Shown here in pieces: positions 2,328 to 17,180 of a stretch of DNA of 64,000 nt (positions within the stretch are counted from its first letter, which is position 1; the number at the start of each line of letters is the position of its first letter). The notes beneath the pieces were generated by a model. The model was given only the letters and a program-made list of their open reading frames with translations, was not told the origin of the DNA and searched no databases. The position numbers and the translations under genes were made by a program. The stretch is from Candidatus Heimdallarchaeum endolithica (GTDB taxonomy: Archaea > Asgardarchaeota > Heimdallarchaeia > Heimdallarchaeales > Heimdallarchaeaceae), in contig CP084167.1 of NCBI GenBank assembly GCA_021513715.1, positions 2,240,001 through 2,304,000 of the forward strand, read 5' to 3'.

Positions 2328-3143
2328 TTATAATTGAATGGGCGGTTCATTTGGTTCTTTAGTATACGATAAAACATAATTGAAAATGTTACTGTATAAC
2401 ACGTAATCTTTTTCTGGATCTAAAAAAAATTCTTTTCCTGTTACCACATCGTTAAAATAAGTAGTAGAATGTTCTAAAATGATTATTTGATTAACAAAAG
2501 ATAGATTCAATATATCCATTATTTTTTGTTTTATTTCATTTGGTGTGGATGTGTTTTTGAAATTATTTATGATGATGTCCAAAGGTTTGATTTTAACATA
2601 CTCTGGGAAATGGGCTATTCTTTCCGCATTCGCTTTCAGCAAGAACAAGTTGGGACTTGCGACTAATATTGGTTTATCAGCTACAAATAGTGCATTTACG
2701 CTATAAATATTCAAAGTACTAGGGCAATCTATGATTATAAAGTCGTATTTTATTTTCATTTCTACAATCAAACCCATCAAAAAATCTAGGAATGTGTCTG
2801 CAGTGAGTGTAGTATATCTATTATTTATTTCATTGAGAGTCAAAACAGGTTCTACAATAGCAAAATCTATTCCTGTTTTGTGTTCTATTATACATTCATC
2901 GAAAGATTCATGTTCTGAAGAGTCTGAAACATTTCTTTTCAACAACCAATCGGTTAAATATTTTTCCTTTACCACTTTTCGATTCAGCAAATATTGATAG
3001 CTAGGATTAAAAATATCCAGTTCAACGACTAGTGTTTTCTTTTTTTCTCGCACAAACATTTTTCCCATATTGAGTGCGAGCATGGTTTTTCCTGTTCCCC
3101 CTTCAAATGAGAAGAGAGTAAGTAATTTACTTTTTCTTGTCAT
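2328..3143 (-). CDS. ParA/MinD-family P-loop ATPase
   Basis: EGGTGKT deviant Walker A, 'VVELD', 'YDFIIIDCPS', 'IIINN'. Confidence 0.85.
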   Translation of the reverse strand: MTRKSKLLTLFSFEGGTGKTMLALNMGKMFVREKKKTLVVELDIFNPSYQYLLNRKVVKEKYLTDWLLKRNVSDSSEHESFDECIIEHKTGIDFAIVEPVLTLNEINNRYTTLTADTFLDFLMGLIVEMKIKYDFIIIDCPSTLNIYSVNALFVADKPILVASPNLFLLKANAERIAHFPEYVKIKPLDIIINNFKNTSTPNEIKQKIMDILNLSFVNQIIILEHSTTYFNDVVTGKEFFLDPEKDYVLYSNIFNYVLSYTKEPNEPPIQL

Positions 3144-4263
3144 CTATTTTCACCAATGAAAAACAAGTTTTGCCATTGACTGCAGTAATCCTTCTTATTA
3201 TCCCCTTTTCCAATAAATACAATAGAGAATGCGTGATATATTCCTTATCACTGATATCATATTCCTTTTCCACATATTCTTCTATCTCATCTCTAGAAAT
3301 TGTATTATTAGTGTTCAGAGCAAGAATGGACTTGAGCACATAGGAAGAAGAATGATCCATTATCTCAAGCATAGTCCTAGTTGAAAAGTAGTTGTCTATC
3401 TCTTCCTCTTCTTTTCTTAACCTAGAACTGAAAGAGTCATAAACTATTTTTTCTACTTTTTTTTCTAATTCGTATAATTTATCTCTAACAGTATAAATAT
3501 TCAATTTTGAAGTAAGAAATCGCTCAAACTCTTTGACTATTTTTGATGCTAATAGGAATTTATACAACCCATGCGTGGTAATAACCATTAAACAAACGTA
3601 TACAGTAATTGGTTCTTGATTCTTAATTAATAAATAATAATCCACAGGATAGAAACTTTCCATTTGCTTAAACAAATTATACTTTTTCATTTTTATGAAA
3701 AAACGAGTAGCTGCATGATCATTATACATCTCAGTTTGTATTTTTATTCTCTCCATACATCTTCTTGTTTTTTCTGGGGTGAGTAGAGCATATGTATCTT
3801 CTATACTTTCTAGTTTCTTCAATTCTTCTTCTTTTTCGTATTCGCTAGCAATTAAACCTTTATTTTCTCCTATTTTATAAAGAAAAACAACTGACAATTT
3901 TTTTCCTAAAAAGTCTGTTAGCTCGTTTGGTTTTTCATTATAAAGGTTATTAGGAGTATAAAATTCTTCCGTAGTGCTAACAACTTTAACTTTTACTTTG
4001 TCTCCAACACTGAACAACTTCCTCAATCGATGAGAAAGATTGAATTCTAGCTTCCCACCTTTTGTTCGAATGATAGGTAAATCAACTCCTTGTTTGCCTA
4101 CTGTATCCTTACTCAAATTTTCCAAGTATATATGATACTCCTTTCCTCCTTCAATATCGCAGATAATCTCTTGTGGAAAACGAATTTTGAATCTGGTCAA
4201 TACAGTTGTAGTGAACTCTATAGGTGATTCATGCTGTATTGTTTTATTCTCTGTTACTGTCAT
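3127..4263 (-). CDS. hypothetical protein overlapping the ParA-like gene; possible AbrB-like N-terminus and C-terminal winged helix
   Basis: 'LSHRLRKLFSVGDKVKVKV' and 'ITHSLLYLLEKGIIRR' patterns; translational coupling. Confidence 0.6.
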   Translation of the reverse strand: MTVTENKTIQHESPIEFTTTVLTRFKIRFPQEIICDIEGGKEYHIYLENLSKDTVGKQGVDLPIIRTKGGKLEFNLSHRLRKLFSVGDKVKVKVVSTTEEFYTPNNLYNEKPNELTDFLGKKLSVVFLYKIGENKGLIASEYEKEEELKKLESIEDTYALLTPEKTRRCMERIKIQTEMYNDHAATRFFIKMKKYNLFKQMESFYPVDYYLLIKNQEPITVYVCLMVITTHGLYKFLLASKIVKEFERFLTSKLNIYTVRDKLYELEKKVEKIVYDSFSSRLRKEEEEIDNYFSTRTMLEIMDHSSSYVLKSILALNTNNTISRDEIEEYVEKEYDISDKEYITHSLLYLLEKGIIRRITAVNGKTCFSLVKIDDKKK

Positions 4264-4535
4264 TTCTTCTGCCCTCCATGTGCTGAACGAAAGATGAAAA
4301 AAATTCTTTCCAAAAATGTAATATGTAAAATGCTTTTTAAAGAAAGCAAAAAATCTCGGACGATATCAGAGAATCGAAAAGTAAAAGTACTCCCAGGACT
4401 AAATATGATTCTGTCCTTTATAAATTGTTTAAGAACTGAATTGTAAGTAAATTTTCCTTCTTCTTTTTTATCAGAAGCGACTAAATATAAATGAATAGAT
4501 GTTTTTTTTCCTTTTCCTTTTTCTTTTTTTCGCAT
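4260..4535 (-). CDS. small hypothetical protein, first gene of the ParA operon
   Basis: ATGA overlap with 3127..4263; GGAG upstream. Confidence 0.5.
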   Translation of the reverse strand: MRKKEKGKGKKTSIHLYLVASDKKEEGKFTYNSVLKQFIKDRIIFSPGSTFTFRFSDIVRDFLLSLKSILHITFLERIFFIFRSAHGGQKK

Positions 4536-13843: not shown

Positions 13844-14059
13844 TCATTTTGTTTTAATAAAAGATGTAAATAAACCTTTTAATTGTTCCTTATTATTCCT
13901 TGATTTTTTTTCTATTTATAATGATTTCATTTAATGTTGATAGTATATCGTCAAAAATATAAATATTTTCAATGTTTAAGGAAACAAGAACCATTTTCCC
14001 AGTTATTTTGGAAAATCTCTCTCCTATGATTCTTACAAATTGTTCGTTTTTCATTCCAT

Positions 14060-15845
14060 AATTTACTTTTTGCGTAATTTTGCGAACATTAGGATAGAGA
14101 GTATGGATGAAAAAGAAAAAAAGGAAAAGAAGAGGAAAAAAGATGGAGAAGATAGTCAAAACTTTGAAAGTAAAAATAAAAAATGAAGTTTTGACGAGGA
14201 GAAAAAAGGAAAGATTAAGAAGAATAACAGGGAGAGACACAAGGATAATAGAAAATATGTAAAAATTATTCATCACAACAGAAGAAGACTGTGTATGAAA
14301 ACAAAGAAAGGAGAAATAAGAGTACATAGAGGAAAACTAGATGAACTAACATTGACAACATCAAGGCTAAAAAAAGTAGAAGAGAGACTGTTCCTCATGA
14401 CCTTAAAAAGATGTTCCCTTACTGTTCTCACGATGAGTTTCAAGAGTGTAGAGACATAGCAGTACAACTGTACGAGCAAGGATATAGACCTGAAGCCACT
14501 CGTCCTCCAAAAAAGAGACCCAGAAGACAACTAATCAATAAGAATAGGTTTATTCTTACTAATTTGCCAAAAGAGAAAAACAACTCCATTTCTCGTTGGT
14601 GGGTAGGAATAAGAGACTCATTAGACACGTGGAAAAGAAAGACAAGGTATCATCAACGATTATGGTTGCCTTTAGAGATGAGCACTTTTCATCAAAAAGA
14701 ATTGAAAAAAGGACAAATAAAAAGTTTAGAACTGAGATATAAACGTTCTACAAGTGAGTGGTGGGTGTATTTTCAATTAGAAGTTCTTCCTCCTTCTTCT
14801 TTTCCTTGTCCAGTTGATAATTCTTCTTCTCTTCCTCCAGCTGTACTGGGGATAGATCTAGGGATAAACATTCCTGCTGCAGGAGTGTTATTAACGCCCA
14901 AAAGGAAATTAACTATTAAAGAGATAAAATTCTGGCATACCAAACAGTGGAATAGAATCAATCATAGATATAAACTCAAGCTTTCCCGTCTTCAGAGGAA
15001 AGGGGCTTTAAATGACCAGTCGGGTAAAAAACACCAAATTTATCGTTTTCTTGGATATCTTCGTCGGAGATATAGAAACGTTAAACGGTCCTATATTCAC
15101 CAATTTGTAAGAGATGTTGTGCAGACGATAGAGACCTATGCTCAAATGTATGACTTTTTCGTCGTCGTAGGTTACCCCAAAAATGTTAGAAAAGGAAAAG
15201 GAAAAGAAAAAGGGAAAGAAAAAAGTACTCGTTATTTTCGTAGAAAACTTCACCAGTGGAATTATGCTCTTGTTCTTTCTCTTCTCCGTCGAGCACTTAT
15301 ACTTCGAGGTTTTGCTCCTCATCGTATTCTTATAATAGACGAAAGAGGAACATCTTCTCATTGTTCCCGTTGTGGAAAAGAAGTTTCTCGTCCCGTTAGA
15401 GGATTAGTACACTGTCCCTTTTGTAACTATACTTACCACTCTGATTTAACAGGGGCTAGAAATATTGCTCGTAAGTTCCTTAGTCATCTTTTTCGTCCCC
15501 GTGCTACAACTATTGCTGATTACTTTACTGGTCAAAAATTCAGTCTTACTCATTACACTGTTTGCCGAGGACTCAGCCATTGGTTGTAGTCCCAGTAGAC
15601 AAAAAGAAATAATTACTCTTATATTCAAGGGCTAGTTATTCTTTCATTTTTGTCTCTCGTGGAGTGAAGAAAAGAGCTTACAACTCTTTTTTTCTTTATG
15701 ATTCCCCCGATTCGTGTATGACGTCTGTCTTAATCTCCTTCTTCTTTCATTGTATGTTAGGATTAAGTTCTCAAGAAACTGACAATTATCTCTTATTGTT
15801 TTTTTCTTGAAAGACTGAGTTCGACAAACTTCGCAAAAAGTAAAT
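14060..15845 (+). mobile_element. TnpB-carrying element with terminal inverted repeats, CAT at both junctions, target CATG; no transposase
   Basis: ATTTACTTTTTGCG (14061-14074) is the reverse complement of 15832-15845, with imperfect extension to ~27 bp; CAT at 14057-59 and 15846-48. Confidence 0.9.
14107..15589 (+). CDS. tnpB: TnpB-family RNA-guided nuclease with rearranged RuvC-II; 5' part has two -1 frameshifts (~14255, ~14370); intact ORF 14411..15589
   Basis: GIDLG (RuvC-I), VVVGYP, IIDERGTSSHCSRCG, CPFC, HSDLTGARNI; upstream frames read MEKIVKTLKVKIK... Confidence 0.88.
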
Positions 15846-15848
15846 CAT
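15590..15848 (+). ncRNA. putative omegaRNA scaffold of the TnpB element
   Basis: Stacked hairpins (AGACAAAAA/TTTTTGTCT, AAAAGAG/CTCTTTT, CTTAATC/GATTAAG, TCAAGAAA/TTTCTTGA) between the tnpB stop and the right end; homologous to 27898-28081. Confidence 0.7.
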
Positions 15849-16017
15849 GTAAAAGGCTAGTTGAAGAAGAAAAATCGATTGGAGGGTATGATAAGCCTAT
15901 AGTACCTAATTTCGGTGATTTTTCTGATATAAAAATAGATATTCCATTATCAAAAAAAATTACTGAAAGAAAAAATAAATTATCTTTTATTTCAACATCT
16001 TTGTTTACTATTTCTAG

Positions 16018-17030
16018 AAGCATGTCCAAAAATTAATTTTTATTGATATGGGGGTTTATGTCGGAATTATCACACATTTCCAGATTTTAGACTCCCACAA
16101 AGTAAGAAAATTCACAGTCATTAATGGACCTTTCCTTAAGAAACTGGTGAAAGTGGAACCGAGAGAAAGTAAGAGAGGGAGAAAGAGAATAGCAGAAAGG
16201 TGGGTAATATTAGCAATAGCAATCATTGCTAGAATAGAAGGGATAGCTTGGAGGAAGTTAGAAGAAAAGTTGTCTCTATGCGCTTTTTTGATAGAAGAGG
16301 GGTGGATGAGGAAGATTCCTTCTAAATCCACTTTTCATGCTGTGTGGAGAGCGACAGAAAGTAAAATCTTAGAGCAGTGGATAATAGAGTTGGGGAGAGA
16401 AATAGTGAGAAAAAAAGGGTTGAAAGCTATGTCGGTGGGCAGTTCAGGTTTTAAAATTCGTCAAGCTTCTGTTTTGCGTTTTCTCAAATGGTCAAGAGAG
16501 ACACTAAAGAAAACCTCCCAACTAAACTTTTCTGGAAGATACACCTTATAGTTGGTTTACCCTCCAGAGCTATAGTCTCTCTAGCTCATTCTGCTAGTAA
16601 CACTCACGATAGTAAAGTCTTCGGTTTGCTATGGCAGAAACTTCCTTCTGTACTCTTGAGACCTTTCTTGAGATTCTATGGTGACTGTGCCTACTGGATA
16701 GAAAATATCGTCGGTCTTCTTAGACAACATTCCTTTTTTCCCTGTTATTTGTTATTCCCCCAAAAAGTAATGTTCGTTATCCCTCTCCTCCTCTCTGACC
16801 AATAGTTCAAGCTCATCTTCTCTACCCTTGTCTCTATCGCCATAATCATCACCCCGAGTATCGTAGTACTATTGAACACGTCTTTGGTCTCCTCAAACTC
16901 TCTCTTCTCCCATCCTTGATCGTTTACCCTCCACCATCCTCTCTACTCTTTTTAGTTTTCTCCTCTGTTACAACTACCTTTTACTCCTTCGTACCGTTTA
17001 GTAGGCGAAAAAGAATTTTTGGACATGCTT
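16018..17030 (+). mobile_element. IS4/IS5-superfamily (DDE_Tnp_1-like) insertion sequence, degenerate copy
   Basis: 17-bp TIR AAGCATGTCCAAAAATT; 7-bp TSD TTTCTAG (16011-17, 17031-37). Confidence 0.92.
16048..17001 (+). pseudogene. frameshifted DDE transposase
   Basis: Fragments 16048..16551 and 16488..16805 match 47448..48392; first catalytic D changed to G (SVGSSG). Confidence 0.9.
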
Positions 17031-17180
17031 TTTCTAGTTTTATAATCAAAATTTTTTTTCTATCATTGTAAATTTTTTTATTATTTGAAGTTCTCTTGAG
17101 TCTATTTTCTCTAAAATTTTGATATTTCTCGTAATTAAAAGTAAAAGTTTTTTAATGTTAAGAAGTTCGCTAATGCAAGA

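Follow-up and report, generated by a model that had tools for sequence, protein, structure and literature searches.

The window analysed here, a stretch of 64,000 nucleotides from the single-contig genome (3.33 Mb) of Candidatus Heimdallarchaeum endolithica, contains a tnpB element of about 1.8 kb that spans positions 14060-15846, carries tnpB as its sole cargo gene and interrupts a small host open reading frame (ORF). Its features, numbered from the first letter of the window, are as follows.

13893..14059, - strand: 3' part of the interrupted small host ORF (GMKN...), whose frame is intact in the sister genome
14056..14059, + strand: host-derived left flank CC-AT, a predicted TAM (consensus V-C-A-T), with the AT at 14058-14059 as core
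14060..14087, + strand: left end, an inverted arm whose T-tract keeps a fixed distance from the core, with two TTTTGCG units spaced by about 10-11 bp
14143..15589, + strand: tnpB pseudogene (intact homologue 485 aa)
15590..15848, + strand: predicted omega-RNA scaffold, which takes in the right end and the AT core
15819..15846, + strand: right end, an inverted arm terminating ...GTAAATC
15847..15848, + strand: right AT core
15847..16008, - strand: 5' part of the interrupted small host ORF (...SLLH)
15849..15868, + strand: host right flank, the predicted guide (which may start one base later), matching the empty allele

We found the perfect 14-bp inverted pair at 14061-14074 and 15832-15845, with AT at 14058-14059 and 15847-15848, just as the original prediction, made from the letters of the window, had described it, and the inverted arms reach 34 nt at 82% identity. 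In DNA this rich in A and T, a perfect 14-mer inverted pair arose by chance in 99 of 300 shuffles of 3 kb; the pair by itself is thus not rare, and the proof of the element lies in 12 copies with the same boundaries in unrelated flanks and in an empty allele in the sister genome. That allele, which had been predicted together with its restored host frame, was found in the complete genome of a relative of the same genus, Ca. Heimdallarchaeum aukensis PM71 (3.08 Mb), where the site reads TTCC-AT-GTAAAAGG with one AT and an intact SLLH-GMKN frame, and where a 119-codon frame runs uninterrupted across it.

The tnpB gene of the window is decayed, with a 1-nt deletion near 14252, a 7-nt deletion near 14379 and a stop three codons early, leaving open only a 392-aa C-terminal ORF from 14411; this copy also has a 58-nt deletion in its 5' leader. 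Intact copies of the window family encode 485 aa with RuvC residues D241, the alternative E401 and D435, all three invariant across 14 homologues, and a C4 zinc finger. Their RuvC-I motif is DLG, combined with the alternative glutamate (the DΦG/Ealt kind), and a pro-Fanzor identity was ruled out because the Fanzor motif is DPG. The predicted scaffold folds better than its shuffles (z = -2.57) and is conserved among copies as far as the AT, diverging beyond it, and an Rfam search returned no match. A pseudoknot between the 3' end of the scaffold and an internal AUGA motif is plausible, with an alignment across groups that is not clean. The guide is predicted to start either with the G at 15849 or with the next base, the latter as in ISXfa1 (PMC10711439).

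Other mobile DNA lies nearby. An IS5-like DDE element (16009-17031), itself frameshifted, directly adjoins the 5' part of the host ORF; it has about 33 copies, a 6-bp duplication, other ends, and a CATG within its own inverted repeat. A cluster of MinD/ParA-like genes at 2328-4365 has a second copy elsewhere in the genome and, with a giant ORF just ahead of the window start, fits the description of an aloposon (PMC8813620).

Shared ends and junctions

The window family comprises 14 tnpB-only elements in the genome, 12 full-length (79-97% identity) and two distant, all with the same boundaries in unrelated flanks. This bears out the original view of a real, non-autonomous mobile element unlike IS200/IS605. 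Inverted ends of the same AT-anchored kind flank about 40 elements of the genome. These represent three unrelated TnpB lineages, namely the window family, one with a 445-aa TnpB and one with a 414-aa TnpB, and two miniature elements (MITEs), of 360 bp (belonging to the 445-aa family) and 383 bp. Outside the archaeal family, a relative of the 414-aa lineage adjoins an IS607 TnpA, and the lineage mostly has other right ends there. We found no published description of this AT-core end system; it is not described in the literature found, in which solo TnpBs mobilised in trans and TIR-bounded TnpBs are known in general terms.

An alignment of 38 of the elements in the genome showed AT at both junctions throughout and a T-tract that is invariant at both ends, at positions 10-12 from the AT on the left and 9-11 on the right. 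The first seven inner bases are variable and, in one family, not inverted; the T2688/E5 ends start with G and finish with G, so that their tips are not inverted. A second end unit lies 10-11 bp further inward than the T-tract unit. Of the 38 elements, 37 have G as their first inner base, the exception being the A at 14060 of the window copy, and the right flank opens with a purine in all 38 (G in 35). Left and right ends co-vary by lineage, with a mean score of 17.0 within an element versus 13.1 across groups, and across the family the repeated end motif differs between lineages, both ends changing together. Target flanks have no T-tract, which indicates that only one of the two partner sites is recognised.

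To define what is shared at the junctions, empty sites were compared in both directions between the two complete genomes; eleven two-ended H. aukensis copies were mapped back to the H. endolithica genome, giving six clean empty sites. At CATA targets the left junction is still CATG and the right one CATA, and left flanks ending in G or A before the AT also occur. Since the inner G on the left and the C on the right stay constant on varied targets, both are part of the element, and AT alone is shared. The reciprocal empty sites therefore exclude a duplication of 3 or 4 bp (CAT or CATG). They sustain the AT core of the original prediction, though not its insertion at CATG with CAT as the unit shared by both junctions: the left junction of the window copy is CATA, and "CATG" combines three things, the predicted TAM (VCAT), the AT core and a purine preference at +1. 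Read from sequence, a 2-nt crossover core and a 2-bp duplication are equivalent, giving identical filled and empty sites.

Several less regular loci were also seen. About 15 right-end-only fragments of 56-700 bp in the genome retain part of the RNA scaffold and are possible orphan guides or decay products. An H. aukensis locus has a tandem partial duplication (locus positions 3340-3400), in which 23-26 nt of flank separate the right end from a second occurrence of the element's 3' half; the break sits where a TnpB cut is expected, and this single case may be a footprint of break repair. The only IS605 Y1 transposase gene of the H. endolithica genome is interrupted within its first codons by an AT-core MITE (925509-925883).

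Left-flank motifs and predicted TAMs

The bases to the left of the AT followed the nuclease group. In the window family, all 31 CAT sites read VCAT, none being preceded by T versus 36% genome-wide (P ~9e-7), so that the predicted TAM ending in CAT stood and could be refined to VCAT, never TCAT (0/31). The 445-aa family and its MITE had TCAT at 16 of 16 sites (P ~9e-8), and the 414-aa lineage had WGAT in 11/11 of one group and TTAT in 6/6 of another. Independence of the sites is assumed in these P values and holds only in part for those from related genomes, and the automatic placement of the left end was out of register at a few sites in distant genomes; the pattern stands in spite of both. 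In the TnpB-less MITE, position -2 was unconstrained and +1 was G in 15/15.

On sequence evidence, then, the bases left of the AT track the nuclease group and not the ends. The right end of each group differs from its left motif at -1 or -2, reading TCAT, YGAT, YCAT and TCAT in the VCAT, TCAT, WGAT and TTAT groups, respectively. In the window element the last right-end bases and the core form TCAT, whose T is the sole -2 base unseen in target sites. A left motif unlike the element's own right end is what a TAM with self-protection would require. The same self/non-self arrangement is found in the IS607 IStron, with TGGG versus TCGG (bioRxiv 2023.11.20.567912).

Candidates for the mobilising enzyme

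We found no gene but tnpB between AT-core ends in the genome, by either an end scan or a repeat catalogue, and hence no autonomous copy; a copy carrying a recombinase or transposase, which the original prediction had suggested looking for, did not turn up. No recombinase or transposase was found beside relatives either. H. aukensis, whose genome is complete and has insertions of its own, gave no match for Y1, tyrosine integrase, IS110, IS630 or a full IS607 TnpA; a full IS607 TnpA was found in neither complete genome and inside no copy. The H. endolithica genome has one viral integrase and a sole Y1 with canonical hairpin ends, split by the AT-core MITE. IS110, IS630, tyrosine integrase and Y1 were rejected as mobilisers, being absent or unusable in the complete genomes, and IS607 elements of related genera have other ends (ACCGT.../GGGG). 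A metagenome pattern scan found solo ends and one tnpB copy only, a viral scan found distant TnpBs only, and the assembled loci examined contained no circle junction.

The elements are probably moved by a serine recombinase of IS607-like type, supplied in trans, that exchanges strands over the AT core. The sharing of AT alone at the junctions and the empty site is as in IS607, where no duplication accompanies the 2-nt core (PMC6188088; bioRxiv 2023.11.20.567912), and the right-flanking base is described as fixed in IS607 and variable in IS200/605 (PMC10711439). The combination of variable terminal bases with a fixed subterminal T-tract disfavours a DDE enzyme. Of the movers in trans proposed at the outset, the serine option is thus the favoured one, while a DDE transposase is disfavoured and its 3-bp duplication excluded. 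The element would be a non-autonomous dsDNA transposon whose only cargo is tnpB and a guide-RNA scaffold. A serine recombinase acting in trans would bind both inverted ends through the T-tract at its fixed distance from the core and the repeats phased at 10-11 bp, and exchange between the two AT dinucleotides would give an excised circle and a scarless site, with integration at another AT, favouring a purine at +1. The TnpB of intact copies, guided by the flank past the right end, would cut the emptied site beside its VCAT TAM, which would force restoration of the element, and the element's own right junction, TCAT, would be spared. We infer the serine chemistry, the circle, the activity of TnpB and its use of the TAM from these patterns.

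A DDE cut-and-paste transposase that acts in trans and duplicates 2 bp of target (AT), on the model of TIR-bounded DDE-TnpB elements, is an unlikely alternative, in spite of the symmetrical, co-varying ends and the abundance of DDE families in the genome. The tips of DDE elements are expected to be conserved, unlike the variable first bases here, which are the least conserved part of the ends and in T2688/E5 are not even inverted. The resident DDE families have other ends and duplications of 6, 9 or 14-16 bp, and IS630 was not found in the five genomes searched. There is precedent for such a mode, in that published DDE-associated TnpBs have inverted ends and solo copies moved in trans (PMC10691335). 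Peel-and-paste transposition of the IS200/IS605 kind by an HUH (Y1) enzyme, in which the left motif would be the cleavage target, TCAT the right cleavage site and the AT match a coincidence, is very unlikely. The IS605 architecture would also account for a left motif that is one-sided and family-specific and for an empty site without a scar, and several IS605 TAMs end in AT. Against this, the left end mirrors the right one as an inverted copy and on inspection forms no strong hairpin, the complete sister genome gave no Y1, and the sole Y1 here is interrupted and has canonical hairpin ends. A purine at +1 in 38/38 elements and a target base degenerate in three ways also fit poorly with target choice by base pairing.

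Mobilisation in trans by an Asgard Cas1-like integrase (aCas1) is the least likely of the readings weighed here. It draws on the nearest relatives of the window TnpB outside the family, which are about 32% identical, come from Thorarchaeota and other Heimdallarchaeia, lie beside genes for putative aCas1 proteins of 1500-1800 aa, and carry a GTTCACTCA motif, published in PMC10691335, that resembles the right ends seen here. The aCas1 label itself rests on one weak match, Pfam being empty for three other such large proteins. A profile of the large proteins found no match in the H. endolithica genome, whose three cas1 genes sit in CRISPR-Cas operons, and two unrelated TnpB lineages use the same ends. 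Cas1-type integrases, moreover, make long duplications. It is marginally less improbable than the HUH reading, and still doubtful, that no dedicated mobiliser acts now and that TnpB breaks and host repair spread the copies, the ends being relics of a lost transposase. That no partner was found, that right-end-only fragments are many, and that the break in the tandem partial duplication falls 23-26 nt beyond the AT, at the expected TnpB cut, are in line with such spread. But the precise two-ended insertions number dozens, at unrelated sites, many of them species-specific and up to 98-99% identical, and homing alone copies into allelic sites only.

Two further contexts were seen among relatives of the window TnpB. 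Thorarchaeota TnpBs beside putative aCas1 genes have GAGTGAAC shortly 5' of the start codon, an inverted version of the GTTCACTC motif downstream. The window TnpB family also occurs in another genus, often 3' of a HerA-like ATPase gene, in varied contexts and with ragged left boundaries, possibly as an insertion carried within a larger mobile element.

For the serine recombinase of the preferred reading, sequence points to candidate mobilisers on the chromosome. Each complete genome has two single-copy genes for serine recombinases about 240 aa long. Their catalytic motifs are intact, and they have the recombinase domain of large serine recombinases without the zinc ribbon, with Bxb1 as best fold match. 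These compact enzymes occur in 20 of 21 genomes of the family and in none of 180 other Asgard genomes searched, a range close to that of the AT-core ends, although the distribution is that of one clade and hence counts as one event. One genome of another family (85% complete) has an AT-core element and no compact recombinase detected. In such enzymes the recombinase domain touches about positions 9-12 of the half-site (PMC3783163), which is where the T-tract lies. Extra paralogues occur in island-like contexts, and none of the homologues checked had an adjacent tnpB or AT-core ends. The several subterminal motifs in one genome would be hard for two fixed enzymes and suit several IS607-type enzymes better, and we consider the compact recombinases about equally likely to be the enzyme as an IS607-type TnpA that was lost or resides on unsequenced DNA. 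In its fullest form, a possibility we put forward tentatively, the AT-core end system of the Heimdallarchaeaceae is moved by chromosomally fixed compact serine recombinases, and its ends have been taken up by two MITEs and by three or more unrelated TnpB lineages, each keeping its own TAM. Of these lineages one is related to aCas1 partners and one to IS607 partners, and the host enzyme would be their common transposase. Neither circular chromosome yielded a XerA-like tyrosine recombinase (only the viral integrase in H. endolithica), and the role of the two compact serine recombinases might instead be to resolve chromosome dimers.

Relation to known transposon systems

TnpB nucleases of different ancestry converge here on one end architecture, in an Asgard group that is phylogenetically close to eukaryotes. 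The genomes predict four TAMs (VCAT, TCAT, TGAT and TTAT) with self-protection, which are directly testable. If a chromosomal serine recombinase of 240 aa is the mobiliser, such an integrase would be very small and require no more than AT in its target, and the transposons would be operated by a host enzyme.

Among known systems, IS607 elements (IS607, IS1535, ISC1926, ISXfa1 and the C. botulinum IStron; PMC6188088, PMC10711439, bioRxiv 2023.11.20.567912) have the same 2-nt core at both junctions and a single one in the empty site. They are also alike in the constrained +1 base, in a tnpB whose RNA scaffold lies at the right end, and in a TAM that overlaps the core with self-protection through one upstream base. 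IS607 elements form a circular dsDNA intermediate and have short direct repeats subterminally in place of terminal inverted repeats; the AT-core ends do contain short phased repeats, but are inverted. The IS607 core is usually GG rather than AT, and the IS607 ends are unrelated, with repeats at differing distances, whereas AT-core ends are inverted and at an equal, fixed distance from the core. IS607 carries tnpA (an N-terminal HTH and a serine recombinase), which no AT-core copy seen does, and unlike in IS607, the AT-core ends are common to unrelated TnpB lineages and MITEs. The window element thus works like IS607 yet falls outside it on tnpA, core sequence and end symmetry.

The DDE-1 to DDE-6 and solo TnpBs (Altae-Tran 2023, PMC10691335) likewise have tnpB between symmetrical ends and mobilisation in trans, but here there is no DDE partner with matching ends, the tips are unconserved and only 2 nt are shared at the junctions. 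The aCas1-TnpB loci (Cas1H-Asgard-1/2; PMC10691335) include the nearest TnpB relatives, with the same rearranged RuvC-II glutamate and a similar right-end motif; in contrast, our genome has no aCas1 match and its TnpBs lie in compact, multi-copy AT-core elements. IS200/IS605 and IS1341-type solo tnpB elements share tnpB with a right-end RNA, a left-flank TAM and a scarless empty site; the window family differs in lacking terminal hairpins (by inspection) and a usable Y1, and in having inverted ends and a constrained +1. The TIR-bounded Fanzor elements (SPu-1, SfAV; PMC3627910, PMC10711439) are alike in being nuclease-only, with inverted ends, a 2-nt junction and an alternative RuvC glutamate, although Fanzors carry the DPG fingerprint in RuvC-I and the window family DLG. 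The convergence of different TnpBs on the AT-core ends is a prokaryotic parallel to Fanzors moving between transposons.
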